A stretch of DNA of 35,391 bases, from the IMG/VR virus record IMGVR_UViG_2718218309_000002. One strand, given 5' to 3'. The stretch is from a virus. Its lineage: Duplodnaviria > Heunggongvirae > Uroviricota > Caudoviricetes. Shown piece by piece: positions 1,791 to 33,885 of this stretch; within the stretch, counting starts at the first letter, position 1, and each line of letters opens with the position of its first letter. The notes under the pieces are model-generated. The model did not search any database and was not told the origin of the DNA. It worked only from the letters and a program-made list of their open reading frames with translations. The position numbers and the translations under genes are program-made.

Positions 1791-1817
1791 AAAAAATAAG
1801 CCCGTGTAAGGGAGATT
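1791..1817. repeat. attL: 27-bp P2-type att core AAAAAATAAGCCCGTGTAAGGGAGATT
   Basis: Exact 27-bp direct repeat of the sequence at 33859..33885; lies immediately upstream of int, as expected for a P2 prophage left junction. Confidence 0.85.
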
Positions 1818-1896
1818 TAGGGTGTCACCAGTAGGGGCTTTCAACGGTACAATGCGGGTTTGAGCGGCATAAATTACCACTGAAAGCCCTTACACG

Positions 1897-2910
1897 TTAC
1901 TCTACTGTGGACACTGTGTGGACACTCTCGGCCTCAGTACCACCTCTTAGCGGATTAAGAGAAATGGCGTCCTGAAGGTACTCTGGCGCAAAATGAGCGT
2001 AAACCATAGTTTGCTCAATCCGCGTGTGACCTAGTATCCGTTGTAGCGTGATAATACTTCCTCCATTAATCATGAAATGAGTGGCAAAGCTGTGCCTTAG
2101 TGCATGTGTGGCTTGCCCCATTGGCAAATCCGGTTTTATTGCTTTCATTGTTCGTCTGAAGCGAGGGTAATCAGCATCAGGGAATAAAAAACCTCGTTTG
2201 TTATCCGCGATCATTTTGGCAACAGCCTCTGAGATCGGGACGGTGCGTGGTTTGTTTGTTTTCGTTTTAACAAACGTGACGCGGTTATGGATGATATTTT
2301 CTGCTTTCAAACGAGCTGCTTCTCCCCAACGTGCTCCAGTACTCAGGCAAAGAATCGCAATCTTTTTGTTGTCGCCGTCAAGAGCAGCAAGCAGTAAGGC
2401 AATTTCTTCCTGCGTGAGATAGCCTGTGTCTGGTTTTTCCTCCTTAAGCCTTTTTGTCCCTCTGATAGGGTGCTCACCAAAGAATAACTCCGCTTCAATC
2501 AGGGCTGTAAACATGCCGCTAATACATGTTAAATCACGATTGATACTCGAAGGTTTAATACCCTGACTTCTTCGGGTGGCGCAGTACTGGCTGATAAGCG
2601 ATTTCGTAATTTGAAATGCGCATGGGTCATTCGTTATTTTTGTGAAGATTTCAATTTTTCCAAGATTAGATTTCCCATGCTCTTCGTGTTTACCCTTTAA
2701 ATCCCACCAGATCTGTGTCAGCTCCGACAGACGTCGCTTGTCTGTTGGTTTTGATAGCCATTCTTTATTGTGGTGGTTGTACAACGTGTATTTCTCGAAA
2801 GCGACAGCTTCGCTTTTCTTATCAAACTTCCTACGGATGCGTTTTCCATTACGTCCAGTAGGGCGGATGTCCACTTCATATCGACCATCATCGAGTTTTT
2901 TGATTGCCAT
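1897..2910 (-). CDS. int: Tyrosine integrase (P2 Int, 337 aa)
   Basis: 337-aa ORF next to attL; C-terminal HALRHSFATH...RILGHTRIEQTMVYAH carries the tyrosine recombinase R-H-R-Y signature; length and position match P2 Int. Confidence 0.96.
   Translation of the reverse strand: MAIKKLDDGRYEVDIRPTGRNGKRIRRKFDKKSEAVAFEKYTLYNHHNKEWLSKPTDKRRLSELTQIWWDLKGKHEEHGKSNLGKIEIFTKITNDPCAFQITKSLISQYCATRRSQGIKPSSINRDLTCISGMFTALIEAELFFGEHPIRGTKRLKEEKPDTGYLTQEEIALLLAALDGDNKKIAILCLSTGARWGEAARLKAENIIHNRVTFVKTKTNKPRTVPISEAVAKMIADNKRGFLFPDADYPRFRRTMKAIKPDLPMGQATHALRHSFATHFMINGGSIITLQRILGHTRIEQTMVYAHFAPEYLQDAISLNPLRGGTEAESVHTVSTVE
1906..1925. promoter_or_regulatory. Tandem TGTGGACAC direct repeats, putative Int arm-type binding sites (P' arm)
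   Basis: Two copies of TGTGGACAC at 1906..1914 and 1917..1925, 11 bp apart, just inside attL; a related TGTGGACGTGACC lies in the P arm near 33811. Confidence 0.4.
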
Positions 2911-3025
2911 CAGAAAACCCTCCGAGTGGTGTGTTTTTTTGCGACTACTAATCGCTTTTTTCGTGGTGGCTGAAATTTAGCCACCAATAGTAGGCACTTG
3001 TGATGAATATATTCACGATGAATTG

Positions 3026-3325
3026 TTAACCAGTCTTTTGACCGGAGTGGGGCGACGTTGTTTCGTTTTGCCCAAAGTGTGCGAGAGCGGGCGCAATTTG
3101 CCCGGACTCAGGAGCGATCTGATTGGTCATGAACCATAAAGTGTATTTGGTGAATTGTGGGGTCTGCAGGATGTTCATCATGACATCTGTTGGAGGTGTT
3201 GAACGACCACTTTCATAGTAACTCAGCGTGCCATACGGAACCCCTGTTAAATCAGCAAGTTGTTGTCTGCTCAAATACTCTGATTTTCGCATTAAGACTA
3301 TCTTCTCGCTTATCGTGTTTGACAT
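3026..3325 (-). CDS. C: Immunity repressor C (99 aa, HTH)
   Basis: 99-aa protein with HTH segment LSRQQLADLTGVPYGTLSYYESG; divergent from cox; matches P2 C in length and position. Confidence 0.93.
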   Translation of the reverse strand: MSNTISEKIVLMRKSEYLSRQQLADLTGVPYGTLSYYESGRSTPPTDVMMNILQTPQFTKYTLWFMTNQIAPESGQIAPALAHFGQNETTSPHSGQKTG

Positions 3326-3329
3326 GGTG

Positions 3330-3358
3330 TTTAGATCTCAATAGTATTTAGTTTAGAT
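3330..3358. promoter_or_regulatory. Putative C operator: TTTAGAT direct repeats 22 bp apart in the C/cox divergent promoter region
   Basis: TTTAGAT at 3330..3336 and 3352..3358, two helical turns apart, in the 114-bp C-cox intergenic region; P2 C is known to bind direct repeats. Confidence 0.4.
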
Positions 3359-3439
3359 GTAGATTGTTTAGTGCTTGGATGTGGGCACTAAAAGGCATTA
3401 TAAGACATTAAACGCAATTCATGAGGGCTAGAGGACGAC

Positions 3440-3715
3440 ATGAGCAAGCAAGTAACACTCATGACTGATGCGATTCCTTATCAGGAGTTCGCAAAACTAA
3501 TAGGAAAATCGACAGGAGCGGTTCGTCGGATGATCGATAAAGGAAAGCTGCCTGTAATTGATATGACCGATCCACAATCAGCTTCAGGTCGTGCAGGTGA
3601 ATATTGGGTGTACCTTCCGGCATGGAATAACGGACTAAAACTGGCTTATGAAAGCCGACCTAAAGAGATTCGTGACGGCTGGTTGATGTGGTTAGGTCTC
3701 GGTGAACCACGTTAA
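3440..3715 (+). CDS. cox: Excisionase / directionality factor Cox (91 aa)
   Basis: 91-aa ORF divergent from C, first gene of the early operon; length and position match P2 Cox. Confidence 0.93.
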   Translation: MSKQVTLMTDAIPYQEFAKLIGKSTGAVRRMIDKGKLPVIDMTDPQSASGRAGEYWVYLPAWNNGLKLAYESRPKEIRDGWLMWLGLGEPR

Positions 3716-3725
3716 GGAGAACCGT

Positions 3726-3896
3726 ATGAATGAGCCTCGTTGTATTGCTCAGTTACTGCGTAACGAAAGCCCCAGGGCGATTGACTTCACCATCACCCAC
3801 GGTAAGGGGCGTAAGGGAATCATTATCCGCACCAAAAAACAGAGTCCGTTAAAAAAGGCTCTGACCTTTCTGAAAAGCCGGAGGGTATGGAAATGA
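3726..3896 (+). CDS. Small early protein (P2 orf78-like, 56 aa)
   Basis: ATG at 3726 preceded by AAGGAGA; the ORF-track entry 3702..3896 starts at an upstream GTG that overlaps the cox stop. Confidence 0.55.
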   Translation: MNEPRCIAQLLRNESPRAIDFTITHGKGRKGIIIRTKKQSPLKKALTFLKSRRVWK

Positions 3897-4393
3897 CAGT
3901 GATGACGCTCAATCTCGTTGAAAAACAGCCAGCAGCTATGCGCCGGATAATTGGTAAGCATCTTGCCGTTCCTCGCTGGCAGGATACATGTGATTATTAT
4001 AATCAGATGATGGAGCGCGAACGGCTAACAGTTTGCTTTCATGCGCAGTTAAAACAGCGTCACGCAACGATGCGTTTTGAAGAAATGAACGACGTCGAAC
4101 GTGAACGACTGGTATGTGCAATTGATGAATTGCGTGGGGCATTCTCAAAACGTCGTCAGGTCGGTGCAAGTGAGTATGCATATATTAGTTTTTTAACAGT
4201 CAGTCAGCGTCGTACTTTATTTATGCATGCCGGATTGACTGAAAAAGAATTTAACCAGCCATACTGGCGAATTAATGAAGAGTCATGTTACTGGCGTGAT
4301 GCTTTATTCCGTGCATTACGTGAATTATTCAGCCTGTTTGAGTATGCACCGACAATTCTGACGTCGGTAAAACCAGAGCAATATCTGCATTAA
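3893..4393 (+). CDS. B: Replication protein B (helicase-loader-like, 166 aa)
   Basis: ORF-track frame 3887..4393; ATG at 3893 gives 166 aa (the P2 gpB length) with GGAGGG 8 nt upstream; ATG at 3887 is an alternative start. Confidence 0.88.
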   Translation: MTVMTLNLVEKQPAAMRRIIGKHLAVPRWQDTCDYYNQMMERERLTVCFHAQLKQRHATMRFEEMNDVERERLVCAIDELRGAFSKRRQVGASEYAYISFLTVSQRRTLFMHAGLTEKEFNQPYWRINEESCYWRDALFRALRELFSLFEYAPTILTSVKPEQYLH

Positions 4394-4456
4394 GTAATTA
4401 ACCAGAGTTTTTAACGCACTTAATCGTGCGGGGCTTCTTTTTGCCTGGAGAAAGTT

Positions 4457-4681
4457 ATGCATACAGTTTCTGAAAGTCAGTGCGGTAAATACGCATTACT
4501 GCTGCAACAGGCCAGAACCGAAGCACAGGCCGACGCTGCGACGCGCTTTTCTTCTCATCTTGATGCCATGATTCGCCACATCACAAAGGCGGAGTTATCC
4601 CGCGTGGAGATAGTCGAGCTGCTCAGTCAGGAGTCGGAAAAATTTCACAATATCGGATTGTCTCGCGGGGAGGTGCTTTGA
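4457..4681 (+). CDS. Hypothetical early protein (P2 orf80-like, 74 aa)
   Basis: ATG at 4457 with GGAG upstream; stop overlaps the next start (TGATG), typical operon coupling. Confidence 0.7.
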
Positions 4682-4983
4682 TGTCCTGTTCTCGTTCAGT
4701 TGTATTACTGAATAACGCCTTAAAAATCGCCGTTATGAAAAATGGCGATTTGTCTCTTATTCAACTTGGTCTTGATAAAGAAAAACGCGAAATAACTGAG
4801 TCTGTTATCGCGATTTATCAGAACGAATTAAACCTCCTGTCTGATGTGGTCAATTTGCTTGTTAAACGCGCTGTGTTTCACAAGCAAATCTCCTCCGTGG
4901 ATGAACTGACGAAATTAACGACAGAAATCGCCAGCTATTGCGCTGATGAATTTAAAAACCTTAACGACAAAAGGAACTGGTAA
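4681..4983 (+). CDS. Hypothetical early protein (P2 orf81-like, 100 aa)
   Basis: ATG at 4681 overlapping the upstream stop; same frame as ORF-track entry 4678..4983. Confidence 0.7.
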   Translation: MSCSRSVVLLNNALKIAVMKNGDLSLIQLGLDKEKREITESVIAIYQNELNLLSDVVNLLVKRAVFHKQISSVDELTKLTTEIASYCADEFKNLNDKRNW

Positions 4984-5207
4984 TGCCGGACAACGTAGAT
5001 TTTATTCAGGCACAACAGGCTGAATTACTGGAGCGCCAGATTAACGCGGCAAGGGTAAAACATTGCGGTGCTTCTGCGATGGTTTGCGAAGAGTGTGACG
5101 CGCCAATACCTGCTGCCCGTCGTGCGGCTTATCCGTCAGCCACGCGTTGTGTTTCCTGTCAGTCAGTTTTTGAAGCAAAAAACAAACATTACCGGAGAAC
5201 GGCATGA
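4983..5207 (+). CDS. TraR/DksA-type C4 zinc-finger protein (P2 orf82-like, 74 aa)
   Basis: CEECDAPIP...RCVSCQ gives a CxxC-(17)-CxxC zinc finger; start overlaps the upstream stop (TAATG). Confidence 0.8.
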   Translation: MPDNVDFIQAQQAELLERQINAARVKHCGASAMVCEECDAPIPAARRAAYPSATRCVSCQSVFEAKNKHYRRTA

Positions 5208-5479
5208 GTATTCGTATTGAAATTGGCGAACGTTATGTCGTTACCAGTGACAGCTTTCAGTTTATTCTCCACGAGAAAAAGAGAGCTGAAAGCGGTAAAA
5301 ACGCCGGTCAGGAATGGCTGGCGGTGGTTGGTTATTACCCGAAATTAAGCCAGCTCGTTTCCGGCCTGATGCATCACGATATTCTGACCGGAAGCGCAAA
5401 GTCTTTTGCTGATTTAAACGCGCAGGTTGAGCAACTCAGCAAGCGTTGTTCAGAGGCTTTTGGCTCATATGGCCGTTAA
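5204..5479 (+). CDS. Hypothetical early protein (P2 orf83-like, 91 aa)
   Basis: ATG at 5204 overlapping the orf82 stop (ATGA). Confidence 0.7.
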   Translation: MSIRIEIGERYVVTSDSFQFILHEKKRAESGKNAGQEWLAVVGYYPKLSQLVSGLMHHDILTGSAKSFADLNAQVEQLSKRCSEAFGSYGR

Positions 5480-7736
5480 AGCCTCCGGGCGTTTTGTCCC
5501 TCCGTCAGCATTTGCCGCAGGCACCGGTAAGACGTTTACCGGTGCTTATGCATGGAACGCGCCACGCGAGGCCGTCGGGCGCGAAAGACCCCTTACACGT
5601 GACGAGATGCGTCAGGTGCAAGGTGTTTTATCCACGATTAACCGCCTGCCTTACTTTTTGCGCTCGCTGTTTACTTCACGCTATGACTACATCCGGCGCA
5701 ATAAAAGCCCGGTGCACGGGTTTTATTTCCTCACATCCACTTTTCAGCGTCGTTTATGGCCGCGCATTGAGCGTGTGAATCAGCGCCATGAAATGAACAC
5801 CGACGCGTCGTTGCTGTTTCTGGCAGAGCGTGATCACTATGCGCGCCTGCCGGGAATGAATGACAAGGAGCTGAAAAAGTTTGCCGCCCGTATCTCATCG
5901 CAGCTTTTCATGATGTATGAGGAACTCAGCGATGCCTGGGTGGATGCGCATGGCGAAAAAGAATCACTGTTTACGGATGAGGCTCAGGATCACCTGTATG
6001 GTCATGTTGCTGGCGCTGCACGAGCTTTCAATATTTCCCCTCTCTACTGGAAAAAATACCGTAAAAGACAGATGACCACGAGGCAGGCATATTCTGCCAT
6101 TGCCCGTCTGTTTAACGATGAGTGGTGGACTCATCAGCTTAAAGGCCAGCGTATGCGCTGGCATGAAGCGTTACTGATAGCTGTCGGGGAGGTCAATAAA
6201 GACCGTTCTCCTTATGCCAGTAAACACGCCATTCGTGATGTGCGTGCGCGCCGCCAGGCAAATCTGGAATTTCTTAAATCGTGTGACCTTGAAAACAGGG
6301 AAACCGGCGAGCGCATCGACCTTATCAGTAAGGTGATGGGCAGTATTTCTAATCCTGAAATTCGCCGGATGGAGCTGATGAACACCATTGCCGGTATTGA
6401 GCGTTACGCCGCTGCAGAGGGTGATGTGGGGATGTTTATCACGCTGACCGCGCCGTCAAAGTATCACCCGACACGTCAGGTAGGAAAAGGCGAAAGTAAA
6501 ACCGTGCAGCTTAACCACGGCTGGAACGATGAGGCATTTAATCCAAAGGATGCGCAGCGTTATCTCTGCCGTATCTGGAGCCTGATGCGCACGGCATTCA
6601 AGGATAATGATTTACAGGTCTACGGTTTGCGTGTCGTCGAGCCACACCACGACGGAACGCCGCACTGGCATATGATGCTTTTTTGTAATTCACGCCAGCG
6701 TAACCAGATTATCGAAATCATGCGTCGCTATGCGCTCAAAGAGGATGGCGACGAAAGAGGAGCCGCGCGAAACCGTTTTCAGGCAAAACACCTTAACCGG
6801 GGCGGTGCTGCGGGATATATCGCGAAATACATTTCAAAAAACATCGACGGCTATGCACTGGATGGTCAGCTCGATAACGACACCGGCAGGCCGCTGAAAG
6901 ACACTGCAGCGGCTGTTACCGCATGGGCGTCAACGTGGCGCATCCCGCAATTTAAAACGGTTGGCCTACCGACAATGGGGGCTTACCGTGAACTACGCAA
7001 ATTGCCGCGCGGCGTCAGCATTGCTGATGAGTTTGACGAGCGCGTCGAGGCTGCACGCGCCGCCGCAGACAGTGGTGATTTTGCGTTGTATATCAGCGCG
7101 CAGGGTGGGGCAAATGTCCCGCGCGATTGTCAGACTGTCAGAGTCGCCCGTAGCCCGTCGGATGAAGTTAACGAGTACGAGGAAGAAGTCGAGAGAGTGG
7201 TCGGCATTTACGCGCCGCATCTCGGCGCGCGTCATATTCATATCACCAGAACGACGGACTGGCGCATTGTGCCGAAAGTTCCGGTCGTTGAGCCTTTGAC
7301 TTTAAAAAGCGGCATCGCCGCGCCTCGGAGTCCTGTCAATAACTGTGGAAGGCTCGCCCGAGGTATCGTTCCAGTTATGGCCCCTACGCCATCTGAGGAT
7401 GCCTCAGCGGTGTTAAATCTTGTTGATGATGGGGTTGTCGTATGGGGTGATCCTGAAGCCATGAGGGTGCTCAGGGATGTGCTAAAACATGACGTGCCGC
7501 AACCAAATCGACACCAGCGGAGCAGGGAACCACTAAAACAGCAGGAAATCGCGCTATCAGCCAGACTGACCAAAGCAGAGCGGGAGCAGATACCGCACAT
7601 CCGTTATGACTTAGCACAGCATAATATCACACCGAAACGTTGGGAACTTGAGGCGCTGGCGCGAGGGGCGACTGTCATTTATGATGGAAAAACATTTACA
7701 TATCAGGTTGTAAATGAATGGGAAAATGAATTTTAA
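5469..7736 (+). CDS. A: Rolling-circle replication initiator gpA (about 755 aa)
   Basis: ORF-track frame 5427..7736 starts at TTG; the first ATG at 5469 gives MAVKASGRF; an HUH-type motif PHHDGTPHWHMMLF and a tyrosine-rich region YIAKYISKN are present. Confidence 0.9.
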   Translation: MAVKASGRFVPPSAFAAGTGKTFTGAYAWNAPREAVGRERPLTRDEMRQVQGVLSTINRLPYFLRSLFTSRYDYIRRNKSPVHGFYFLTSTFQRRLWPRIERVNQRHEMNTDASLLFLAERDHYARLPGMNDKELKKFAARISSQLFMMYEELSDAWVDAHGEKESLFTDEAQDHLYGHVAGAARAFNISPLYWKKYRKRQMTTRQAYSAIARLFNDEWWTHQLKGQRMRWHEALLIAVGEVNKDRSPYASKHAIRDVRARRQANLEFLKSCDLENRETGERIDLISKVMGSISNPEIRRMELMNTIAGIERYAAAEGDVGMFITLTAPSKYHPTRQVGKGESKTVQLNHGWNDEAFNPKDAQRYLCRIWSLMRTAFKDNDLQVYGLRVVEPHHDGTPHWHMMLFCNSRQRNQIIEIMRRYALKEDGDERGAARNRFQAKHLNRGGAAGYIAKYISKNIDGYALDGQLDNDTGRPLKDTAAAVTAWASTWRIPQFKTVGLPTMGAYRELRKLPRGVSIADEFDERVEAARAAADSGDFALYISAQGGANVPRDCQTVRVARSPSDEVNEYEEEVERVVGIYAPHLGARHIHITRTTDWRIVPKVPVVEPLTLKSGIAAPRSPVNNCGRLARGIVPVMAPTPSEDASAVLNLVDDGVVVWGDPEAMRVLRDVLKHDVPQPNRHQRSREPLKQQEIALSARLTKAEREQIPHIRYDLAQHNITPKRWELEALARGATVIYDGKTFTYQVVNEWENEF

Positions 7737-7827
7737 TGATATTAAGATACTAGGAACTAAAGAGGTATATACCCGCGATAATTGAAGGTGCTTGATTTCG
7801 AAGATAATCAGGTTCATGTTAACAGCT

Positions 7828-7971
7828 ATGAATATTGAGTTGACCGTAGAACAAAAAATCGCCATCGAAGCATTGCAACGAAAAAGTCGTGATCTCCATA
7901 TCCGCGATCGGGTCTGCTGCGTATTGCTTTCTTCTGAAAGCTGGTCAATCACAATGATTGCACCATCCTAA
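7828..7971 (+). pseudogene. Possible remnant of an IS630-family transposase N-terminus (47 codons)
   Basis: ATG at 7828 encodes MNIELTVEQKIAIEALQRKSRDLHIRDRVCCVLLSSESWSITMIAPS then stop; the pattern resembles N-terminal HTH regions of IS630-type transposases as I recall them; no downstream catalytic region. Confidence 0.35.
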
Positions 7972-8110
7972 TATATCCATAAAACAACCGCTTTGTGACA
8001 CCTGAATGACTGGACTGGTAGTAAAAAAGTAAACTTGAAACTGGTATTGAGTTTTAAGTGCGCGGGTTTTCGGTAGGGAGGTGACACTCATTAAATTAAA
8101 AGTTTCTGGT

Positions 8111-8140
8111 AAGGGGGCGGGGCCCCCTTTATAGGTTTTT
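8111..8140. terminator. GC-rich palindrome plus T-run: putative bidirectional intrinsic terminator between the A operon and the cargo gene
   Basis: AAGGGGGC-GGG-GCCCCCTT (8-bp stem, 3-nt loop) followed by ATAGGTTTTTT on the plus strand; the minus-strand side is also AT-rich; sits where the two transcription units converge. Confidence 0.45.
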
Positions 8141-11071
8141 TCAGGAATGAATAACCTTTCTAACCTGGAAGCTATCATTATGAGATGGGATTATTTCTCC
8201 TTTGAAAATAAGCCCTTCTCTCAAATACTGCCTGCTTTCAGAGGAAAATATTGTTACGTGGAAAAATATATCTACAGGGAGTTTGTCACAACTACAGAAT
8301 CCATATCCTCGTTGTGGAAAGTATCTTTTAATGATGCACTCCCCACTGATTGCTTCAACGTTTGGTGATTCTTTGCTATAAATATGACTAATCACCATGC
8401 CTATCTCTGTTCTGGAAATGTCACACATCAAAGTGTCGCCATCAACGACGGAATCTATATTATATTGTTTTAATAAATTTTGAGAAATATCGATGGGCCC
8501 ATCAATGTCATTAACAATTAGATATCCAAGGCCACGCTCAACATCATAGCTATCTACAATTGCCCTAGCATGTTTTTTTACGATGCCTAGTTTATAAATG
8601 TCGCCAAGAGTATTCTCTGGTGGTTCGCTTTCATCATATCTATTTTGTTTAAAGACTAATAGTCGATTGATTAACTCTTTTTGGCATTCATATTTTTCAT
8701 GTGTTATCTCATTGCTAATATAAACAGAGTCTTCAGATATTAAATACTCTAGAAATAGATTTCTAATATTGTACATTTTAGAGATGTGATTGCCTTTGGA
8801 AGCATAAGTATCTTTTATTTTATTTGCGATAGAACTGTCGGTGATCGCTGTTGTTAATGCCATTTGATAGAAGTAAACGCTATTACGAGATGCGAGCTTT
8901 AAATGTGCTCTACCTTTATAAGAAATTGCTAATTTCTGATTTGATGAGAGTGTAGTTGATGACATATCATAGGGTTCTATTAATTTTGCCATAATTAAGC
9001 TCTCTAAAGCTTTATCGACAGCTAGTTCTGTTGCTCCTAAAGCATCGAAATAACTGCTGATAGATTGTACGCTTAAATGTTTATCCTCAATGCTTTTTCC
9101 AGGCACTTGAATGGAGTTAAGTAAAGTAAGGATTCTTAACGCTTGCAATGGTGATTGTCTTACTTGACTATCAACTTGGAATATAGGATATATTTCTGGG
9201 ATGTCACCATTTTTATAAACTTCATAATCACCGCGAATTAACGCGTCCATGAAGCGAGTGAAATTTATCGAAGGAAGTTCACCACTAATATAAGATTTTA
9301 TCAAGTCCTCTATTTTAATTGCAGGGGATGTGATTATTCTTTTTGATAATAATAATGTTCTGCGTATATTATAGTTGGCAAGCTCACCAAGAGTTTGTGA
9401 TGTGTAATCATGATTCACAAAAATATTTTCAATCACTTTAGAAAATTTATTTATATCTTCAATGGAAATTTTAATACCTTTTGATAAAAGATAGCTTTTC
9501 TTTTGTTCATTAGTATCTTTATTGTTAAGTTTTGATGTGATGAAGTTAATTCGCTTTCTGAATACTTCCCGTGGGGACGGAGTTGGTAGAAAAAATGATT
9601 TTGATTGATAGATGCTAAATATATCTGTCTTGGAGAAAATCCAAGCTGATTTATCTGTCACGGGGAAAATAACAAGGCAGTGTTTAATGTTTTTTTTAAT
9701 TGAATTGCTAAACTGGAAGACTTTTGTTTTAAAGTCAAGTGTGAATTCATCAGTGTTATCTACGACTATTATTGGAAGCATTTTTCTATTGCTTACAACA
9801 TTGTGAAGGATGCGTTTTAAATATCCCTCTCGATCATTTTCAACAGCTTCATCTAAATAACGTCCAAATTTTTCCTTGAACTCATCTTTACTTCTATTGT
9901 AAAGAGCTGCGTCCGCTCCTCTTGATTTTCTTTTATATTCATTGTGATAAAGTCCAAGGAGATCATTCCATTCAGGTACGCCGTCCTTGTAAAGCTGGGT
10001 CTCAAGGGTTTTTATTATTTCTTCAGTCATCCAATCTAGAACTGTATCTTCTCGCCCTGTAGCTTCTAAGCAGTTTATTTTAATAAGTAAGCATCGTTCT
10101 CTAATCGTTTTATTAAGGGTGCGACTGAAAAAACGGTCTAAAAAAGTCGACTTCCCAGAGCCAGTTGGTCCAACTATAAAAACGGATTGTTCTGACTCTA
10201 GATTTATATCAGACTCAATATTTGACATTATTAAATCAGAAAGCTCATCTCCAACTTTATTTTTATTATAGTTTATATTTGACAAGACGCTAGTTGTTAT
10301 TTTCTCAAGTGAATAGTCTGCAATTCTACTTTCATATGATTCAACAAAACATTCCATCATCATCTCGTCATCTCCCTCTAATCGAGAGAAGAAACTAGAG
10401 AATACCCTTTCTAAATCATAAGCCATATCACTTTTTCTTGTTATTTTTATATCAGATCCAATGATTGGGGCTGTTAATTCATTATTTAACAATAAACGTT
10501 TGTTGTGAATATCATCAAATATAGTGTTATACAATCTTTTGTTAAATGCTTCTTTTGATAATAATTCATAGAACACGCTAAATGATTTTTCGACTGCCTC
10601 GATACTAGGGAATACAATTGCCTCTTTACTTTTGAAGTTTTCACCAGGTATAAATGTTTTGAATATTACCCAACATAACCCATCAGTTAGAATAGAAAGA
10701 GGTATGCCATTTGGCGATGCGTAGCTAAATGCCTGGTTAATTCCTGTCTCGCATTTCTTTAAAGCAGAACCTGATATTTTTAAATGTCTTACAGTGTTTT
10801 TTTGAGCTGTTTCAACTTCTAAAATGCCGATTTTTTTGGCTTCGACAACAAAGGAGGGATGATCATCAGTGGAAAGAATGTAGTCAGAGAATCCATTGTC
10901 ATGGGCAGTTTCACAAGCAATATCAGAGTGCATCCATCCAAGCGTCTCTGTTAATATGCGAGTTATGATTTGAATTTTAGCATCTTCTTCTGATTGGATT
11001 TTTGTGATGTTATGATTAACATCACTCATAATTTTTAAGAATTTTTTTTCGCTGGAATCTAAACTAGTCAT
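8141..11071 (-). CDS. Candidate anti-phage defence protein (976 aa): N-terminal PD-(D/E)xK nuclease-like domain, central P-loop NTPase, C-terminal cold-shock-like OB domain
   Basis: Single uninterrupted ORF in the A-to-cos slot. Residues 55-80 GFSDYILSTDDHPSFVVEAKKIG fit a PD-(D/E)xK / HsdR-N-like nuclease core; residues 301-309 GPTGSGKST form a Walker A (nt 10145..10171); residues 434-442 IIVVDNTDE are a candidate Walker B; residues about 908-976 (nt 8144..8350) resemble a cold-shock domain. Strongly AT-rich relative to the flanking phage genes. Confidence 0.85.
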   Translation of the reverse strand: MTSLDSSEKKFLKIMSDVNHNITKIQSEEDAKIQIITRILTETLGWMHSDIACETAHDNGFSDYILSTDDHPSFVVEAKKIGILEVETAQKNTVRHLKISGSALKKCETGINQAFSYASPNGIPLSILTDGLCWVIFKTFIPGENFKSKEAIVFPSIEAVEKSFSVFYELLSKEAFNKRLYNTIFDDIHNKRLLLNNELTAPIIGSDIKITRKSDMAYDLERVFSSFFSRLEGDDEMMMECFVESYESRIADYSLEKITTSVLSNINYNKNKVGDELSDLIMSNIESDINLESEQSVFIVGPTGSGKSTFLDRFFSRTLNKTIRERCLLIKINCLEATGREDTVLDWMTEEIIKTLETQLYKDGVPEWNDLLGLYHNEYKRKSRGADAALYNRSKDEFKEKFGRYLDEAVENDREGYLKRILHNVVSNRKMLPIIVVDNTDEFTLDFKTKVFQFSNSIKKNIKHCLVIFPVTDKSAWIFSKTDIFSIYQSKSFFLPTPSPREVFRKRINFITSKLNNKDTNEQKKSYLLSKGIKISIEDINKFSKVIENIFVNHDYTSQTLGELANYNIRRTLLLSKRIITSPAIKIEDLIKSYISGELPSINFTRFMDALIRGDYEVYKNGDIPEIYPIFQVDSQVRQSPLQALRILTLLNSIQVPGKSIEDKHLSVQSISSYFDALGATELAVDKALESLIMAKLIEPYDMSSTTLSSNQKLAISYKGRAHLKLASRNSVYFYQMALTTAITDSSIANKIKDTYASKGNHISKMYNIRNLFLEYLISEDSVYISNEITHEKYECQKELINRLLVFKQNRYDESEPPENTLGDIYKLGIVKKHARAIVDSYDVERGLGYLIVNDIDGPIDISQNLLKQYNIDSVVDGDTLMCDISRTEIGMVISHIYSKESPNVEAISGECIIKRYFPQRGYGFCSCDKLPVDIFFHVTIFSSESRQYLREGLIFKGEIIPSHNDSFQVRKVIHS

Positions 11072-11126
11072 TTCTTATCATCCAAAGTGATGTAAGTAAG
11101 TTACGGATAAATTCTTATGTATTGAG

Positions 11127-16438: not shown

Positions 16439-16441
16439 CCG

Positions 16442-25189: not shown

Positions 25190-25192
25190 ATT

Positions 25193-25720: not shown

Positions 25721-25935
25721 GTTGTATGAGCTCTAGTGTGGGCTTACATATCTATGGCACAGAGTAAAGCCTAATCTGACAGTCCACTCTGTGCCAGAGG
25801 TGGGCATTGCTGATGTCATAAAATATTATGCCAGCAGCCGTCTTAGGGGAGTGTTTACATTTCAATGATCGGGTATGATCTCGGCATGTTAATGGTTTAT
25901 TACTAAATGCTTGCGCCTATCTTTATGGAGGAGTA

Positions 25936-26835: not shown

Positions 26836-27029
26836 AATCAAGAGGATTTGGCTCGGATGATTATGTGCGGCTTATAACCATAACGTAATGAGCGGATTTT
26901 TCTACTGCTTTTTATCATTTTGGTTAACTAAAACTAACCTCTGCTCCTCGCTCAAAGCAGACTGTCAGATTTGATAGCGTTTTGGCTATGTAAATTGTCA
27001 GTCGGAAAATGAGTGAGTACAAATCAGGA

Positions 27030-27058
27030 CAGGCGGGCGAATTGCCTGCCTTTTCTTT
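27030..27058 (+). terminator. Weak hairpin plus T-run downstream of the Z/fun-slot gene
   Basis: CAGGC-GGGCGAATT-GCCTG followed by CCTTTTCTTT; only a 5-bp stem. Confidence 0.25.
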
Positions 27059-27154
27059 ATCTGTTGTTTCATCTACTGACCAGCCAGGTCAAATAGCGTC
27101 TCATGCACTGCCCAACAGAAAATAGTTGCACCCATTAACCACGGAGTTAAACGG

Positions 27155-28345
27155 ATGAGTGACTATCATCACGGCGTGCAGGTGCTGGAGATTAACGACG
27201 GCACCCGCGTCATTTCCACCGTATCCACCGCCATTGTTGGCATGGTCTGCACGGCCAGCGATGCGGATGCGGAAATCTTCCCCCTCAATAAACCGGTGCT
27301 GATTACCAATGTGCAGAGTGCAATTGCAAAGGCCGGTAAAAAAGGCACGCTGGCGGCGTCGTTGCAGGCTATCGCCGACCAGTCAAAACCGGTCACCGTT
27401 GTCGTACGTGTGGAAGACGGCACCGGCGAAGACGAAGAAACGAAACTCGCGCAGACCGTTTCCAATATCATCGGCACCACTGACGAAAACGGTCAGTACA
27501 CCGGACTGAAGGCCCTGCTGGCGGCAGAGTCGGTAACCGGTGTTAAACCGCGTATTCTCGGCGTGCCGGGACTGGACACCAAAGAGGTGGCTGTTGCACT
27601 GGCATCAGTCTGTCAGAAGCTGCGCGCTTTCGGGTATATCAGCGCATGGGGCTGTAAAACCATTTCCGAGGTGAAAGCCTACCGCCAGAATTTCAGCCAG
27701 CGTGAGCTGATGGTCATCTGGCCGGATTTCCTCGCATGGGATACGGTCGCCAGTACCACCGCCACCGCGTATGCCACCGCCCGTGCGCTGGGTCTGCGCG
27801 CTAAAATGGACCAGGAGCAGGGCTGGCATAAAACGCTGTCCAACGTCGGGGTGAACGGTGTTACCGGCATCAGCGCGTCCGTATTCTGGGATTTGCAGGA
27901 GTCCGGCACCGATGCTGACCTGCTTAACGAGTCAGGCGTCACAACGCTGATTCGCCGTGACGGTTTCCGCTTCTGGGGTAACCGTACCTGCTCTGATGAT
28001 CCGCTGTTCCTCTTTGAAAACTACACCCGCACCGCGCAGGTGCTGGCCGACACGATGGCTGAGGCGCACATGTGGGCGGTGGACAAGCCCATCACCGCAA
28101 CGCTGATTCGCGACATCGTTGACGGCATCAATGCCAAATTCCGTGAGCTGAAAACAAACGGCTATATCGTGGATGCGACCTGCTGGTTCAGCGAAGAGTC
28201 CAACGATGCGGAAACCCTCAAGGCCGGAAAACTGTATATCGACTACGACTATACCCCGGTGCCTCCTCTTGAAAATCTGACCCTGCGCCAGCGCATTACC
28301 GATAAATACCTGGCAAATCTGGTCACTTCGGTTAACAGCAATTAA
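27155..28345 (+). CDS. FI: Tail sheath protein gpFI (396 aa)
   Basis: 396 aa, P2 gpFI position and length. Confidence 0.96.
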   Translation: MSDYHHGVQVLEINDGTRVISTVSTAIVGMVCTASDADAEIFPLNKPVLITNVQSAIAKAGKKGTLAASLQAIADQSKPVTVVVRVEDGTGEDEETKLAQTVSNIIGTTDENGQYTGLKALLAAESVTGVKPRILGVPGLDTKEVAVALASVCQKLRAFGYISAWGCKTISEVKAYRQNFSQRELMVIWPDFLAWDTVASTTATAYATARALGLRAKMDQEQGWHKTLSNVGVNGVTGISASVFWDLQESGTDADLLNESGVTTLIRRDGFRFWGNRTCSDDPLFLFENYTRTAQVLADTMAEAHMWAVDKPITATLIRDIVDGINAKFRELKTNGYIVDATCWFSEESNDAETLKAGKLYIDYDYTPVPPLENLTLRQRITDKYLANLVTSVNSN

Positions 28346-28357
28346 GGAGCCTGACCG

Positions 28358-28876
28358 ATGGCAATGCCGCGCAAACTCAAGTTAATGAACGTCTTTCTGA
28401 ACGGCTACAGCTATCAGGGCGTTGCAAAGTCCGTCACGCTGCCAAAACTGACCCGTAAGCTCGAAAACTATCGCGGTGCGGGGATGAACGGCAGCGCACC
28501 GGTAGACCTCGGCCTTGATGACGATGCGCTGTCAATGGAGTGGTCGCTCGGTGGCTTCCCGGATTCGGTTATCTGGGAGCTTTACGCCGCAACCGGTGTG
28601 GATGCTGTGCCGATTCGTTTTGCAGGCTCTTACCAGCGTGACGATACCGGCGAAACGGTGGCCGTCGAAGTGGTCATGCGTGGACGTCAGAAAGAAATCG
28701 ACACCGGCGAGGGCAAACAGGGAGAAGACACCGAGTCGAAAATCTCCGTGGTCTGCACCTATTTCCGGCTGACGATGGACGGTAAGGAGCTGGTCGAAAT
28801 CGACACCATCAACATGATTGAGAAGGTGAACGGCGTCGACCGGCTGGAGCAACACCGCCGCAATATCGGCCTGTGA
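28358..28876 (+). CDS. FII: Tail tube protein gpFII (172 aa)
   Basis: 172 aa, P2 gpFII position and length. Confidence 0.96.
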   Translation: MAMPRKLKLMNVFLNGYSYQGVAKSVTLPKLTRKLENYRGAGMNGSAPVDLGLDDDALSMEWSLGGFPDSVIWELYAATGVDAVPIRFAGSYQRDDTGETVAVEVVMRGRQKEIDTGEGKQGEDTESKISVVCTYFRLTMDGKELVEIDTINMIEKVNGVDRLEQHRRNIGL

Positions 28877-28932
28877 TTTTCATCCGGTCAGCCTGGCTGA
28901 CCGGTTAACCCCGATTCAGAAGTGAGAAAACC

Positions 28933-29208
28933 ATGAACAAAGAAAATGTGATTACCCTGGACAATCCGGTCAAGCGTGGTGAGCAGGTTATCGAACAGGT
29001 CACGCTGATGAAACCCAATGCCGGGACGCTGCGCGGTGTCAGTCTGGCTGCGGTCGCAAACTCCGAAGTCGATGCGCTGATTAAGGTGCTGCCGCGCATG
29101 ACGGCACCAATGCTGACCGAGCAGGAGGTCGCCGCGCTGGAACTGCCTGACCTTGTGGCGCTGGCCGGTAAGGTGGTCGGTTTTTTGTCGCCGAACTCGG
29201 TGCAGTGA
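28933..29208 (+). CDS. E: Tail assembly chaperone gpE (91 aa)
   Basis: 91 aa ending GFLSPNSVQ; contains a TTTTTTG slippery site near its 3' end. Confidence 0.92.
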   Translation: MNKENVITLDNPVKRGEQVIEQVTLMKPNAGTLRGVSLAAVANSEVDALIKVLPRMTAPMLTEQEVAALELPDLVALAGKVVGFLSPNSVQ

Positions 29209-29360
29209 CGTTCCCGAAAAATTTCTCGGTCGATGACCTGATGGCGGATGTGGCAGTGATATTTCACTGGCCGCCATCAGAACTGTATCCCATGAGCCTG
29301 ACCGAACTCATCACATGGCGCGAAAAGGCGCTCCGGCGAAGCGGAAACACGAATGAGTGA
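28933..29360 (+). CDS. E': Tail assembly chaperone gpE+E' (programmed -1 frameshift product, about 142 aa)
   Basis: Slippery heptamer TTTTTTG at 29181..29187; the -1 frame continues ...VAELGAVTFPKNFSVDDLMADVAVIFHWPPSELYPMSLTELITWREKALRRSGNTNE to a TGA overlapping the T start. Confidence 0.75.
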
Positions 29361-31800
29361 CAATGTAAAATTACAGGTATTGCTCAGGGCTGTTGACCAG
29401 GCATCCCGCCCGTTTAAATCCATCCGTACAGCGAGCAGGTCGCTGTCGGGTGATATCCGGGAAACACAAAAATCACTGCGCGAGCTGAACGGTCAGGCAT
29501 CCCGTATTGAGGGATTCCGCAAGACCAGTGCACAGCTCGCCGTGACTGGTCATGCACTTGAAAAGGCACGGCAGGAGGCCGAAGCCCTTGCCACACAGTT
29601 TAAAAACACCGAGCGTCCGACCCGTGCTCAGGCGAAAGTGCTGGAATCCGCAAAGCGAGCAGCGGAGGACTTACAGGCGAAATATAACCGCCTGACGGAT
29701 TCCGTTAAACGCCAGCAGCGGGAACTGGCTGCTGTGGGAATTAATACCCGCAATCTTGCACATGATGAGCAGGGGCTGAAAAACCGTATCAGTGAAACCA
29801 CCGCGCAGCTTAACCGGCAGCGTGACGCGCTGGCGCGTGTCAGTGCGCAACAGGCAAAACTTAACGCAGTAAAACAGCGTTATCAGGCCGGAAAGGAACT
29901 GGCCGGAACTATGGCCTCAGTGGGCGCTGCCGGTGTGGGGATTGCGGCGGCGGGAACGATGGCCGGTGTTAAGTTGCTGATGCCCGGTTATGAGTTTGCG
30001 CAGAAAAACTCAGAATTGCAGGCCGTGCTCGGCGTGGCAAAAGACTCCGCCGAAATGGCCGCACTCCGCAAGCAGGCGCGCCAGCTCGGTGACAATACTG
30101 CCGCCTCGGCGGATGATGCAGCCGGTGCACAGATTATCATTGCGAAAGCCGGTGGAGATGCTGCGGCTATTCAGGCGGCAACGCCGGTCACGCTGAATAT
30201 GGCACTGGCGAATCAGCGGTCGATGGAAGAAAACGCGCAACTGTTGCTGGGGACTAAGGCATCCTTTCAACTGTCAAATGATGATGTCAGTCATGTGGGC
30301 GACGTGTTGTCGGCAACGATGAATAAGTCGGCGGCTGATTTTCAGGGACTCAGTGATGCACTGACTTATCTCGGCCCGGTTGCGAAGACGGCAGGTGTAA
30401 GTCTTGAGCAGGCAGCAGCCATGACAGGTGTGCTGCATGACAATAACATCAGGGGGTCAATGGCGGGTACGGGTAGCAGTGCCGTTGTCACCCGATTACA
30501 GGCTCCGACAGGGAAAGCATGGGATGCACTCAAAGAGCTTGGCGTTAAAACCTCGGACAAAAAGGGAAATATGCGCCCGTTGTTCACCATTCTGAAAGAG
30601 ATTCAGGCCAGCTTTGATAAACACAAGCTGGGAACGTCTCAGAAGGGGGAATACCTTAAAACCATTTTTGGTGAGGAAGCCCTGAAATCAGCGAACGTTT
30701 TACTGGCAGCGGCAGCAAGCGGAAAACTGGATACGCTGACCGCCACGCTGAAAGCCTCGGACGGTAAAACGGAAGAGCTGGTTAAAATCATGCAGGATAA
30801 CCTCGGCGGTGACTTTAAGGAGTTTCAGTCCGCTTATGAGGCGGTGGGGACTGACCTGTTTGACCAGCAGGAAGGCGCACTGCGTAAGCTCACACAGACG
30901 GCCACAAAGTATGTGTTAAAACTCGACGGCTGGATCCAGAAAAACAAATCACTGGCGTCAACCATCGGCCTCATTGTCGGTGGCGCACTGGCGCTGACTG
31001 GCGTCATCGGTGCCATTGGCCTCGTAGCCTGGCCGGTTATCACCGGCATCAATGCCATCATCGCGGCAGCAGGCGCAATGGGGGCAATCTTCACGACGGT
31101 TGGCAGTGCTGTTATGACGGCCATCGGGGCGATTAGCTGGCCGGTTGTTGCCGTGGTGGCCGCCATTGTCGCCGGGGCGTTGCTTATTCGTAAATACTGG
31201 GAGCCTGTCAGCGCATTCTTTGGCGGTGTGGTTGAAGGGCTGAAAGCGGCATTTGCGCCGGTGGGGGAACTGTTCACGCCACTTAAACCGGTGTTTGACT
31301 GGCTCGGTGAAAAGTTACAGGCCGCGTGGCAGTGGTTTAAAAACCTGATTGCCCCGGTCAAAGCCACCCAGGACACCCTGAACCGTTGCCGTGACACGGG
31401 TGTCATGTTCGGGCAGGCACTGGCTGACGCGTTGATGCTGCCGCTTAATGCGTTCAACAAACTGCGCAGTGGTATTGACTGGGTACTGGAAAAACTCGGT
31501 GTCATCAACAAAGAGTCAGACACACTTGACCAGACCGCCGCAAGGACTAATGCCGCCACGTATGGCACCGGTGGTTATATTCCGGCGACCAGCTCTTATG
31601 CAGGCTATCAGGCTTATCAGCCGGTCACGGCACCGGCTGGCCGCTCTTATGTGGACCAGAGTAAAAACGAATATCACATCAGCCTGACCGGTGGTACTGC
31701 GCCGGGGACACAGCTTGACCGCCAGTTACAGGATGCGCTCGAAAAATACGAGCGGGATAAACGTGCGCGTGCCCGTGCCAGCATGATGCATGACGGTTAA
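29353..31800 (+). CDS. T: Tail tape measure protein gpT (815 aa)
   Basis: 815 aa with a coiled-coil N-terminus and a hydrophobic Gly/Ala-rich central region; P2 gpT position. Confidence 0.95.
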   Translation: MSDNVKLQVLLRAVDQASRPFKSIRTASRSLSGDIRETQKSLRELNGQASRIEGFRKTSAQLAVTGHALEKARQEAEALATQFKNTERPTRAQAKVLESAKRAAEDLQAKYNRLTDSVKRQQRELAAVGINTRNLAHDEQGLKNRISETTAQLNRQRDALARVSAQQAKLNAVKQRYQAGKELAGTMASVGAAGVGIAAAGTMAGVKLLMPGYEFAQKNSELQAVLGVAKDSAEMAALRKQARQLGDNTAASADDAAGAQIIIAKAGGDAAAIQAATPVTLNMALANQRSMEENAQLLLGTKASFQLSNDDVSHVGDVLSATMNKSAADFQGLSDALTYLGPVAKTAGVSLEQAAAMTGVLHDNNIRGSMAGTGSSAVVTRLQAPTGKAWDALKELGVKTSDKKGNMRPLFTILKEIQASFDKHKLGTSQKGEYLKTIFGEEALKSANVLLAAAASGKLDTLTATLKASDGKTEELVKIMQDNLGGDFKEFQSAYEAVGTDLFDQQEGALRKLTQTATKYVLKLDGWIQKNKSLASTIGLIVGGALALTGVIGAIGLVAWPVITGINAIIAAAGAMGAIFTTVGSAVMTAIGAISWPVVAVVAAIVAGALLIRKYWEPVSAFFGGVVEGLKAAFAPVGELFTPLKPVFDWLGEKLQAAWQWFKNLIAPVKATQDTLNRCRDTGVMFGQALADALMLPLNAFNKLRSGIDWVLEKLGVINKESDTLDQTAARTNAATYGTGGYIPATSSYAGYQAYQPVTAPAGRSYVDQSKNEYHISLTGGTAPGTQLDRQLQDALEKYERDKRARARASMMHDG

Positions 31801-31814
31801 GGAGGTGACGAAAA

Positions 31815-32294
31815 ATGATGCTCGCGTTAGGTATGTTTGTTTTTATGCGCCAGACGCTGCCACACCAGACCATGCAGCGTGAATCAGATTATCGCTGGCC
31901 GTCAAATTCCCGTATCGGTAAACGGGATGCCTACCAGTTTCTCGGTGTGGGTGAGGAAAACATGACGCTGGCCGGTGTGCTTTATCCCGAACTGACCGGC
32001 GGCAAGCTGACGATGACCACGCTCAGGCTGATGGCAGAGGAAGGCCGGGCGTGGCCGTTGCTGGATGGCACCGGCATGATTTACGGCATGTATGTCATCA
32101 GCAGGGTGAGTGAAACAGGGAGTATTTTCTTTGCAGACGGCACACCCCGAAAAATTGATTTTACGCTGTCGCTCACCCGCGTTGATGAATCACTGGCCGC
32201 GCTTTATGGCGATATAGGTAAACAGGCGGAATCGCTCATCGGTAAGGCTGGCAGTATGACAACCAGATTCACGGGTATGACGGGGGCGGGATAA
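31815..32294 (+). CDS. U: Tail protein gpU (159 aa)
   Basis: 159 aa, P2 gpU position and length. Confidence 0.94.
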   Translation: MMLALGMFVFMRQTLPHQTMQRESDYRWPSNSRIGKRDAYQFLGVGEENMTLAGVLYPELTGGKLTMTTLRLMAEEGRAWPLLDGTGMIYGMYVISRVSETGSIFFADGTPRKIDFTLSLTRVDESLAALYGDIGKQAESLIGKAGSMTTRFTGMTGAG

Positions 32295-33457
32295 TGCTGG
32301 ATGCGCTGACATTTGATGCAGGCAGTACGCTGACACCGGATTACATGCTGATGCTCGACAGCAGGGATATTACCGGCAATATCAGCGACCGTCTGATGAG
32401 CATGACCCTGACGGATAACCGGGGCTTTGAGGCTGACCAGCTTGATATTGAACTGAACGATGCCGACGGGCAGGTCGGGCTGCCGGTTCGTGGCGCTGTC
32501 CTGACGGTGTATATCGGCTGGAAAGGTTTTGCCCTGGTATGCAAAGGGAAATTTACCGTTGATGAGGTTGAACACCGGGGCGCGCCGGATGTGGTTACCA
32601 TCCGCGCCCGGAGTGCAGATTTCCGCGGGACGCTCAATTCCCGCCGTGAAGGCTCCTGGCATGACACCACGCTCGGTGCGATTGTTGAGGCGATAGCCTC
32701 CCGTAACAGACTGGAAGCCAGTGTCGCTCCGTCACTGGCCGGAATTAAAATCCCGCACATCGACCAGTCGCAGGAGTCTGATGCGAAATTCCTGACCCGT
32801 CTTGCAGAACGCAACGGCGGTGAGGTCTCTGTAAAAATGGGAAAACTGTTGTTTCTCAAAGCGGGGCAGGGGGTGACGGCCAGTGGTAAAAAAATCCCGC
32901 AGATTACCATCACCCGCAGCGACGGCGACCGTCATCATTTTGCGATTGCTGACCGTGGAGCTTACACCGGCGTAACGGCAAAGTGGTTACACACCAAAGA
33001 CCCGAAGCCGCAAAAGCAGAAGGTAAAACTGAAACGCAAAAAGAAAGAGAAACACCTGCGCGCACTGGAACACCCGAAAGCGAAACCAGTCACGCAGAAG
33101 AAAGCGCCAAAAGTACCGGAAGCGCGCGAAGGTGAATACATGGCAGGTGAGGCTGACAACGTTTTTGCCCTGACCACGGTATATGCCACGAAAGCGCAGG
33201 CCATGCGCGCCGCTCAGGCGAAGTGGGATAAGCTGCAACGGGGCGTTGCGGAGTTCTCCATCAGTCTGGCTACTGGTCGGGCAGATATTTACACGGAAAC
33301 GCCGGTCAAAGTATCAGGCTTTAAGCGCGTCATAGACGAGCAGGACTGGACAATCACTAAGGTGACACATTTTCTGAATAATAGCGGCTTCACGACGTCC
33401 CTGGAGCTTGAGGTCAGGCTTTCTGATGTGGAGTACGAAACAGAAGATGATGAGTGA
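32294..33457 (+). CDS. D: Tail protein gpD (387 aa)
   Basis: 387 aa, start overlaps the U stop; P2 gpD position and length. Confidence 0.94.
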   Translation: MLDALTFDAGSTLTPDYMLMLDSRDITGNISDRLMSMTLTDNRGFEADQLDIELNDADGQVGLPVRGAVLTVYIGWKGFALVCKGKFTVDEVEHRGAPDVVTIRARSADFRGTLNSRREGSWHDTTLGAIVEAIASRNRLEASVAPSLAGIKIPHIDQSQESDAKFLTRLAERNGGEVSVKMGKLLFLKAGQGVTASGKKIPQITITRSDGDRHHFAIADRGAYTGVTAKWLHTKDPKPQKQKVKLKRKKKEKHLRALEHPKAKPVTQKKAPKVPEAREGEYMAGEADNVFALTTVYATKAQAMRAAQAKWDKLQRGVAEFSISLATGRADIYTETPVKVSGFKRVIDEQDWTITKVTHFLNNSGFTTSLELEVRLSDVEYETEDDE

Positions 33458-33538
33458 TGTTTTTATTTTATCTGTTTGTTTTATAAGGATAAATTAACTA
33501 AAATGGCACCATCAACAAAACCGGAAGAGGTGCTCGCG

Positions 33539-33757
33539 ATGTTTCATTGTCCTTTATGCCAGCATGCCGCACATGCGCGTACAAGTCGCTATATCACTGA
33601 CACGACAAAAGAGCGTTATCACCAGTGCCAGAACGTGAATTGCAGCGCCACGTTCATCACTTATGAGTCGGTACAGCGATACATCGTGAAGCCGGGAGAA
33701 GTCCACGCCGTAAGACCGCACCCGTTGCCGTCAGGGCAGCAAATTATGTGGATGTAA
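33539..33757 (+). CDS. ogr: Late-gene transcription activator Ogr (zinc finger, 72 aa)
   Basis: ORF-track frame 33476..33757; ATG at codon 22 gives MFHCPLCQHAAHARTSRYITDTTKERYHQCQNVNCSATF with a CxxC...CxxxxC zinc finger. Confidence 0.95.
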   Translation: MFHCPLCQHAAHARTSRYITDTTKERYHQCQNVNCSATFITYESVQRYIVKPGEVHAVRPHPLPSGQQIMWM

Positions 33758-33769
33758 TTACAAACAGGA

Positions 33770-33795
33770 AGCCCCTCAGTCGAGGGGCTTTTTTG
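33770..33795 (+). terminator. Intrinsic terminator after ogr
   Basis: AGCCCCTC-AGTC-GAGGGGCT hairpin followed by TTTTTTG immediately after the ogr stop. Confidence 0.7.
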
Positions 33796-33858
33796 TCGAT
33801 GTGGTCAATGTGTGGACGTGACCAGAAATAAATCCTTTTATTTCATTGTATTACGCGT

Positions 33859-33885
33859 AAAAAATAAGCCCGTGTAAGGGAGATT
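33859..33885. repeat. attR: 27-bp P2-type att core AAAAAATAAGCCCGTGTAAGGGAGATT
   Basis: Exact direct repeat of 1791..1817, about 100 bp downstream of ogr. Confidence 0.85.

Follow-up and report, generated by a model that had tools for sequence, protein, structure and literature searches.

The stretch of DNA described here, called the window, comprises 35,391 nucleotides of a virus record of the Caudoviricetes (IMG/VR record IMGVR_UViG_2718218309_000002), and all positions are given in its numbering. The genes yegS and yegR lie on its left side and yegQ (now trhP) on its right, and between them a prophage related to phage P2 is found, which with its two att cores occupies 1791-33885. A preliminary description of this DNA had placed a P2-like element between yegR and yegQ, with an exact 27-bp repeat occurring twice, about 32 kb apart, and bracketing int to ogr. 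The flanking genes and the repeat were confirmed, the latter by a re-count and by shuffled sequences, and the gene of a small RNA (sRNA), cyaR, was additionally found between attR and yegQ. The element is very probably a complete prophage of the genus Peduovirus, integrated by its integrase in the 3' end of cyaR and carrying two cargoes at hotspots, the first of which likely serves in defence. The ends of the element and the sRNA gene are located as follows:

1790-1817, plus strand: attL core, the 27-bp P2 core and one shared base, an exact repeat identical to the P2 attP core
1818-1930, plus strand: P' arm, containing Int arm sites (TGTGGACACTGTGTGGACAC) and the Cox-binding region, differing from P2 24383-24496 at a single position
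33795-33857, plus strand: P arm with Int arm sites, identical to those of P2, and the IHF region
33858-33885, plus strand: attR core, an exact repeat
33862-33947, minus strand: cyaR sRNA gene, Rfam RF00112, full-length model, scoring 100.7 bits (gathering score 47)

Two exact copies of the 27-mer AAAAAATAAGCCCGTGTAAGGGAGATT lie on the plus strand, at 1791-1817 and 33859-33885, and no further copy was found in the window with up to three mismatches allowed, none being expected from 100 shuffles. The two copies are identical and, with the preceding T common to both, the exact repeat even reaches 28 bp (1790-1817 and 33858-33885). The 27-bp core agrees base for base with the attP core annotated in P2 (P2 24356-24382). 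With both cores the element spans 32,095 bp, the unit phage genome being 32,068 bp, near the 33,593 bp of P2; int lies just inside attL and ogr just inside attR.

Insertion took place at the 3' end of cyaR, a more precise description than an intergenic site. The att core (33859-33885) overlaps the 3' end of this gene, where the terminator loop, the 3' half of the stem and the U-tail constitute the core; cyaR is regenerated at attR, and attL has a copy of the core alone, without the other half of the stem. Since the cyaR terminator and the attP core have the same sequence, a crossover inside the core keeps cyaR intact at attR and places a second core at attL. A prophage-free arrangement, in the order yegR, core and trhP, was found in strain PI6. 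The preliminary description had stated that K-12 contains no more than a cryptic P2 remnant (ogrK/yegZ) at this locus, and comparison with MG1655 bore this out: an element annotated 'cryptic prophage PR-X' is present there, in the order yegR, a partial core fused to yegZ (a fragment of gpD), ogrK, P arm, exact core, cyaR and trhP. PR-X shares with the window the locus, the attR core, the P arm and a near-identical ogr, abutting cyaR, but it measures 629 bp against 32 kb, the K-12 deletion having its ends within the attL core and within gene D.

That the strain carries an intact element at this locus was supported as well, but its presence proved unremarkable. A query of the attL-int junction was covered to at least 80% in 811 of 5426 complete E. 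coli genomes (about 15%), so that occupancy of the junction by a P2-type integrase is common and is no special property of the strain. We take the site to be locI, the classical P2 site and the one preferred in E. coli C, a name that reportedly stems from Barreiro and Haggard-Ljungquist in 1992. The bacterial side of attL (1717-1790) carries a relic P arm (TCGATGTGGTCAATG ... GTGACCAG) without the IHF segment, preceded by a core-like GAAGGGAGATT. Because the relic sequence is also found in prophage-free genomes, even an 'empty' attB bears the scar of an older P2-like element.

The relationship with P2 was established by a megablast search of 1791-25000 against 50,697 phage records, in which P2 was the top match (97.2% identity over 83% of the query) and the remaining top matches were all members of Peduovirus. 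In the practice of the International Committee on Taxonomy of Viruses, 95% delimits a species and 70% a genus. The product of identity and coverage with respect to P2 is about 0.81 over 1791-25000, below the species value, which assigns the prophage to the genus of P2 and to another species. The backbone was checked by comparing the lengths of open reading frames (ORFs) with the P2 annotation and by tblastn of 36 proteins from a sister prophage, that of E. coli D6, annotated with the Prokaryotic Genome Annotation Pipeline. Its modules are arranged in this order:

1897-2910, minus strand: int, tyrosine integrase of 337 amino acids (aa), 336/337 (99.7%) identical to P2 Int
3026-3325, minus strand: C, immunity repressor of 99 aa, 100% identical to P2 C
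3440-3715, plus strand: cox, excisionase and repressor of Pc, a 91-aa ORF of P2 length, 100% identical to D6 cox
3726-5479, plus strand: early operon with orf78, B, orf80, orf81, orf82 and orf83, ORF lengths equal to those of P2
5469-7736, plus strand: A, rolling-circle replication initiator of 755 aa, containing ori, 93% identical to P2 gpA
11285-11303, plus strand: cos, 19-nt cohesive end GGCGAGGCGGGGAAAGCAC, an exact match to P2 cosL/cosR
11472-14278, minus strand: Q (portal, 344 aa) and P (large terminase, 590 aa), full length, 99.1% and 99.7% identical to D6
14452-17997, plus strand: O, N, M, L and X (scaffold, capsid, small terminase, head completion, tail X), full length, 98-100% identical
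18001-19776, plus strand: lysis cassette with holin Y, endolysin K, lysA, lysB and lysC, by comparison with D6 and P2
19739-25720, plus strand: tail and baseplate genes R, S, V, W, J and I, fibre H (681 aa) and G, full length against D6
27155-33457, plus strand: FI, FII, E, E+E', T, U and D (sheath, tube, chaperones, tape measure, tail), full length against D6
33539-33757, plus strand: ogr, late-gene activator of 72 aa, 100% identical to the protein annotated OgrK in D6

Each backbone gene of P2 is matched in the window by an ORF with the expected length, order and strand, namely int, C, cox, orf78, B, orf80-83, A, Q, P, O, N, M, L, X, Y, K, lysA/B/C, R, S, V, W, J, I, H, G, FI, FII, E/E', T, U, D and ogr. 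The D6 proteins of the backbone aligned in full length and free of gaps, with 92-100% identity except for the tail-fibre pair H/G, which diverges in its distal parts; the products of int, C, cox, orf78, B, orf81 and orf83 are 100% identical to those of D6 and that of orf80 98.6%, and orf82, which is frameshifted in D6, is an intact 74-aa ORF of P2 length. Neither the ORF lengths against P2 nor the tblastn comparison with D6 disclosed a truncated, frameshifted or missing essential gene. Among the cis-acting sites, the ori nick region in A has one mismatch to P2 over its first 82 nt and the slippery run of E/E' (GGTTTTTTG) is conserved with respect to P2. The sequence traits that define a Peduovirus prophage were found: direct repeats of the P2 core, the C/cox switch, a P2-type integrase, gpA and gpB with ori in A, a 19-nt cos, divergent Q-P and O-N-M-L operons and a full contractile-tail, baseplate and lysis set with the E/E' frameshift. 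The immunity, replication, packaging, lysis and tail modules, which the preliminary description had called functional-looking, are indeed represented by full-length ORFs in both comparisons, this term being justified only at the level of sequence. In the lysis cassette, the ORF of holin Y overlaps the start of K by 14 nt.

Gene order and content from int to ogr are shared with P2 (NC_001895), and the att core, cos and C are identical. The prophage differs from P2 in the absence of orf30 (nonessential, on the opposite strand between S and V; not present at 20652-20717), of orf91 after A (ORF list against the P2 annotation), and of tin, old and Z/fun, and in the presence of a gene for a 976-aa protein and of a homologue of Wphi orf44 instead; the C-termini of tail fibre H and gpA and the holin tail are diverged. 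The first 251 residues of H (23144-25720 region) are 97% identical to D6, the alignment reported between H and P2 comprises the C-terminal ~140 residues alone, with 51% identity, and G is 76% identical to that of D6, a divergence which suggests a swapped receptor-binding module.

The life cycle would be that of P2. Int would recombine attP with the cyaR terminator, and the C repressor, identical to that of P2, would hold lysogeny and confer P2 immunity; excision would need Int, Cox and IHF, replication would start by gpA nicking at the ori inside A, and packaging would proceed from cos by the P/M terminase, with the late genes activated by Ogr. Low-GC single-gene cargo, horizontally acquired, takes the place of the tin/old and Z/fun genes of P2. 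P2 is not inducible through the SOS response and, since the C proteins are identical, the same is expected of this prophage, which makes mitomycin C a poor test.

Some traits weigh against a phage that is still viable. Its viability is deduced from sequence integrity, with which inactivating point mutations that truncate nothing would be compatible. The holin Y (18001-18294, plus strand) has 97 aa against 93 in P2, with an altered C-tail (…KSRGNSNAGN vs …KGRGKQ) that is 4 aa longer, the divergence of gpA from P2 is confined to the last ~150 residues, which adjoin the hotspot, and the IHF-proximal ~15 nt of the P arm at attR are of the K-12-remnant type, with several differences from P2. These changes, together with the difference of the holin tail from that of D6 as well and the fact that a sequence by itself proves no viability, would fit a recently inactivated, cryptic prophage, complete in appearance yet unable to excise, replicate or lyse owing to missense or cis changes. 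Such a state is considered quite unlikely: no essential gene is damaged or missing, cos, ori and the frameshift site are intact, the C-terminal divergence of gpA is shared in kind by D6 (94% identity), and pseudogenes are rare in P2 elements, according to a published report (PMC13586616). The variant P arm bears also on the origin of the right end (ogr, P arm and core), which could have arisen by recombination with a resident ogrK remnant of the K-12 type, giving a phage-remnant chimera. In agreement with this, between ~33770 and the core the sequence matches the MG1655 remnant exactly and departs from P2 in the P arm, the ogr product is 100% identical to the OgrK-annotated protein of sister prophages, and the relic P arm left of attL indicates repeated P2 traffic at the site. 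Nevertheless, about nine differences from MG1655 occur within the ogr coding region, and the OgrK protein is found also in complete sister prophages, so that the K-12 remnant may descend from the same phage lineage. A chimeric right end therefore appears rather improbable, and the prophage is complete under either reading.

Apart from this backbone, the complete prophage contains two islands of cargo, whose features are:

7737-11284, unstranded: cargo island 1 in the gpA-gpQ (tin/old) hotspot, replacing P2 orf91, tin and old
8111-8129, unstranded: GC-rich, terminator-like hairpin, 12 nt past the stop codon of the 976-aa gene (sequence scan)
8141-11071, minus strand: 976-aa protein, candidate defence gene, with a PD-(D/E)xK nuclease, an Orc/Cdc6/STAND-like AAA+ NTPase and two cold-shock domains (CSDs)
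11127-11154, minus strand: promoter-like site (TTGAAC-16-TACAAT) upstream of the 976-aa gene (consensus scan only)
25721-27154, unstranded: cargo island 2 in the G-FI (Z/fun) hotspot, 99.9% identical to Wphi 14381-15841
25936-26835, plus strand: 299-aa protein, homologue of Wphi orf44, phrog_7195 (unknown function)

The GC content of islands 1 and 2 is 0.35 and 0.39, respectively, against 0.54 in the backbone. The positions that they occupy, gpA-gpQ (tin/old) and G-FI (Z/fun), are known from published work as defence hotspots in P2-like phages (PMC9122126; PMC13586616). Island 1 was detected, with 99.3-99.4% identity, in 6 of the 5426 complete E. coli genomes, and neither the island nor its 976-aa gene had a match among the phage records searched, Wphi included; island 2 was present in 114 of these genomes. 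The closest relatives among complete genomes, VTB96777v, CE0026f and CE0032f, match the whole of 1791-25000, the 976-aa cargo included, with 98.2% identity, and the prophage of VTB96777v, the one of the three whose flanks were examined, is inserted at the same yegR-trhP locus. In its G-FI hotspot (26391-28474), three other genes, one of them annotated 'restriction endonuclease', take the place of orf44. Since VTB96777v shares cargo 1 and has other genes at G-FI, the two hotspots assort independently, and the pair formed by the window and VTB96777v illustrates the rapid and independent swapping of hotspot cargo that has been reported (PMC13586616). The D6 prophage, at the same locus, encodes an 864-aa SIR2-family protein (D6 locus 7945-10539) in the gpA-gpQ hotspot and has no 976-aa gene. 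The exact cargo combination of the window prophage was found in no complete genome of the collection.

The 976-aa protein is composed of an N-terminal nuclease (residues 1-190), an AAA+ module (~285-730) and a C-terminal region with CSDs (829-975). Pfam recognized AAA_22 and CSD, and a profile search of the PDB placed the two cold-shock domains at residues 834-900 and 913-976. Across 28 aligned members of the family, the PD-(D/E)xK residues D63, E77 and K79, which conform to the HsdR N-terminal type, the Walker A (G301...G306-K307) and Walker B (D438, D441-E442) motifs and the G-F motifs of both CSDs are all invariant. Fold searches with an AlphaFold2 model gave Cdc6/Orc replication initiators and the transposition ATPase TnsC as best matches. 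A promoter-like site precedes the gene at a position analogous to that of the P2 old promoter near cos, although the number of such sites in the region is not above the shuffled expectation.

The family is widespread. A HMMER scan returned 228 representatives (at 50% identity) with E <= 1e-30, and homologues sharing 44-59% identity were found in Vibrio, Plesiomonas, Citrobacter, Yersinia, Serratia, Methylomonas, Rhizobium and Aquimarina as well as in numerous metagenomes, with HSDR_N, AAA_22/AAA_16 and CSD as their precomputed Pfam domains. Elsewhere the homologues are carried as single-gene cargo, in a lone islet (V. cholerae), an integrase/AlpA/Rep island (Citrobacter), at a prophage end (Yersinia) or in an integrase/SIR2 island (Methylomonas). 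A near-identical protein, WP_032286573, is listed as a single-gene P2 locus labelled 'AAA_22' (Rousset 2022, Table S5) and is absent from the evaluated systems (Rousset 2022, Table S2).

The most likely role of cargo 1 is anti-phage defence expressed by the lysogen, because the gene occupies the gpA-gpQ slot, held by old and tin in P2 and by SIR2 in D6, because it is mobile, and because its product has an effector-NTPase-binding-domain layout. In the proposed mechanism, the tandem CSDs would bind single-stranded nucleic acid produced in infection, the Orc/Cdc6/STAND-like AAA+ module would then switch or oligomerise, and the N-terminal HsdR-type PD-(D/E)xK nuclease, released in this way, would cut DNA. 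The order of N-terminal effector, central NTPase and C-terminal sensor is that of the Avs type. Known Avs proteins recognise phage proteins, and EcAvs4, with ~1,600 aa, is much longer than the 976-aa protein. Compared with Avs and bacterial NLR-like proteins that have Mrr-type nuclease effectors, the closest folds found for the 976-aa protein are Orc/Cdc6, and its C-terminus consists of two CSDs instead of the TPR-like, repeat-type sensor of Avs, which suggests a nucleic-acid ligand and not a protein ligand. No NACHT, NB-ARC, NLR or Avs model matched it in Pfam or PADLOC, the only Pfam assignment of the NTPase being AAA_22/AAA_16. The protein belongs to no defined Avs family, yet resembles Avs functionally. 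The other point of comparison is P2 Old, which has the same slot and orientation and is likewise a single-gene ATPase and nuclease expected to be expressed from the prophage; Old is formed by an ABC-type ATPase and a Toprim nuclease, whereas the folds of the 976-aa protein are PD-(D/E)xK, AAA+ and CSDs.

The more specific proposal, that the gene encodes an uncharacterised single-gene anti-phage protein of a widespread family which senses single-stranded nucleic acid through its CSDs, is put forward only tentatively, and several points count against it. Sensing by the CSDs is something that we purely infer. Relatives of ~800-870 aa align to residues 1 to ~800 and are devoid of CSDs, and phrog_14719 covers residues 1-832 only, so that the CSD pair seems to have been added to a nuclease-AAA+ core. 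In PADLOC-DB v2.0.0 there was no full-length defence model, the best match being mad8 (E 3e-5), restricted to the P-loop, and distant relatives of the protein matched only the generic CSD model. In the literature searched, no report of a defence phenotype was found for this protein, and the nuclease-AAA+-CSD architecture was not found in a defence context, its sole trace being the entry in Rousset 2022 (Table S5). The absence of matching defence models would agree also with a protein that serves the prophage or itself, as a toxic nuclease of the addiction type, in counter-defence, or as a replication or partition accessory related to Orc/Cdc6. Such a role, which is favoured in addition by the structural matches to Cdc6/Orc initiators and TnsC and by homologues that adjoin Rep or integrase genes of small islands, is regarded as rather unlikely.

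The interpretation given in the preliminary description is supported on the whole. The prophage is an ordinary relative of P2 at a common site, and the biology of its hotspots is already published. About one complete E. coli genome in seven has a P2-like prophage at the site; the present one contributes little by itself, and the only lead of note is the catalogued, uncharacterised nuclease-AAA+-2xCSD gene. The locus serves as a worked example of phage integration into the terminator of an sRNA gene without damage, of the decay of such a prophage to the ogrK/yegZ remnant of K-12 and of the rapid swapping of cargo among otherwise near-identical prophages. Its practical value resides in the gpA-gpQ cargo, a rare gene of a broadly distributed family that is intact here and carried by a natural expression platform. 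If the 976-aa protein does defend against phages, a nucleic-acid-sensing variant would be added to the NTPase-based immune receptors.

The cargo of the second hotspot is shared with phage Wphi (NC_005056), whose G-FI island is 99.9% identical to the window (25700-27160), orf44 included, in a comparison that covered that island alone. The family of the 299-aa protein encoded there comprises 12 clusters, and all those with an organism name belong to the Enterobacterales; it had no match in Pfam, PADLOC or NCBIfam. Five residues of its N-terminal part, C33, C38, H58, H71 and C75, are invariant. The structure model is poor (predicted local distance difference test, pLDDT, 54.5), and a weak likeness of the C-terminal half to OB folds is no more than a hint.

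Small ORFs beside the 976-aa gene were also considered. A 47-aa ORF (7828-7971, plus strand), which lies between gpA and the cargo gene and corresponds in relatives to the hypothetical protein WP_001755157, was rejected as a transposase fragment, with no Pfam support and no family match. Two minus-strand ORFs (7945-8178 and 7611-7952) were discarded as operon partners of the 976-aa gene: they had no family matches, the terminator-like hairpin follows right after the 976-aa stop codon, and RefSeq calls neither of them in VTB96777v.

Outside the element, a perfect 11-bp inverted repeat (AGCACGATGCC ... GGCATCGTGCT) downstream of yegR, at 1696-1729, is probably the terminator of this gene.

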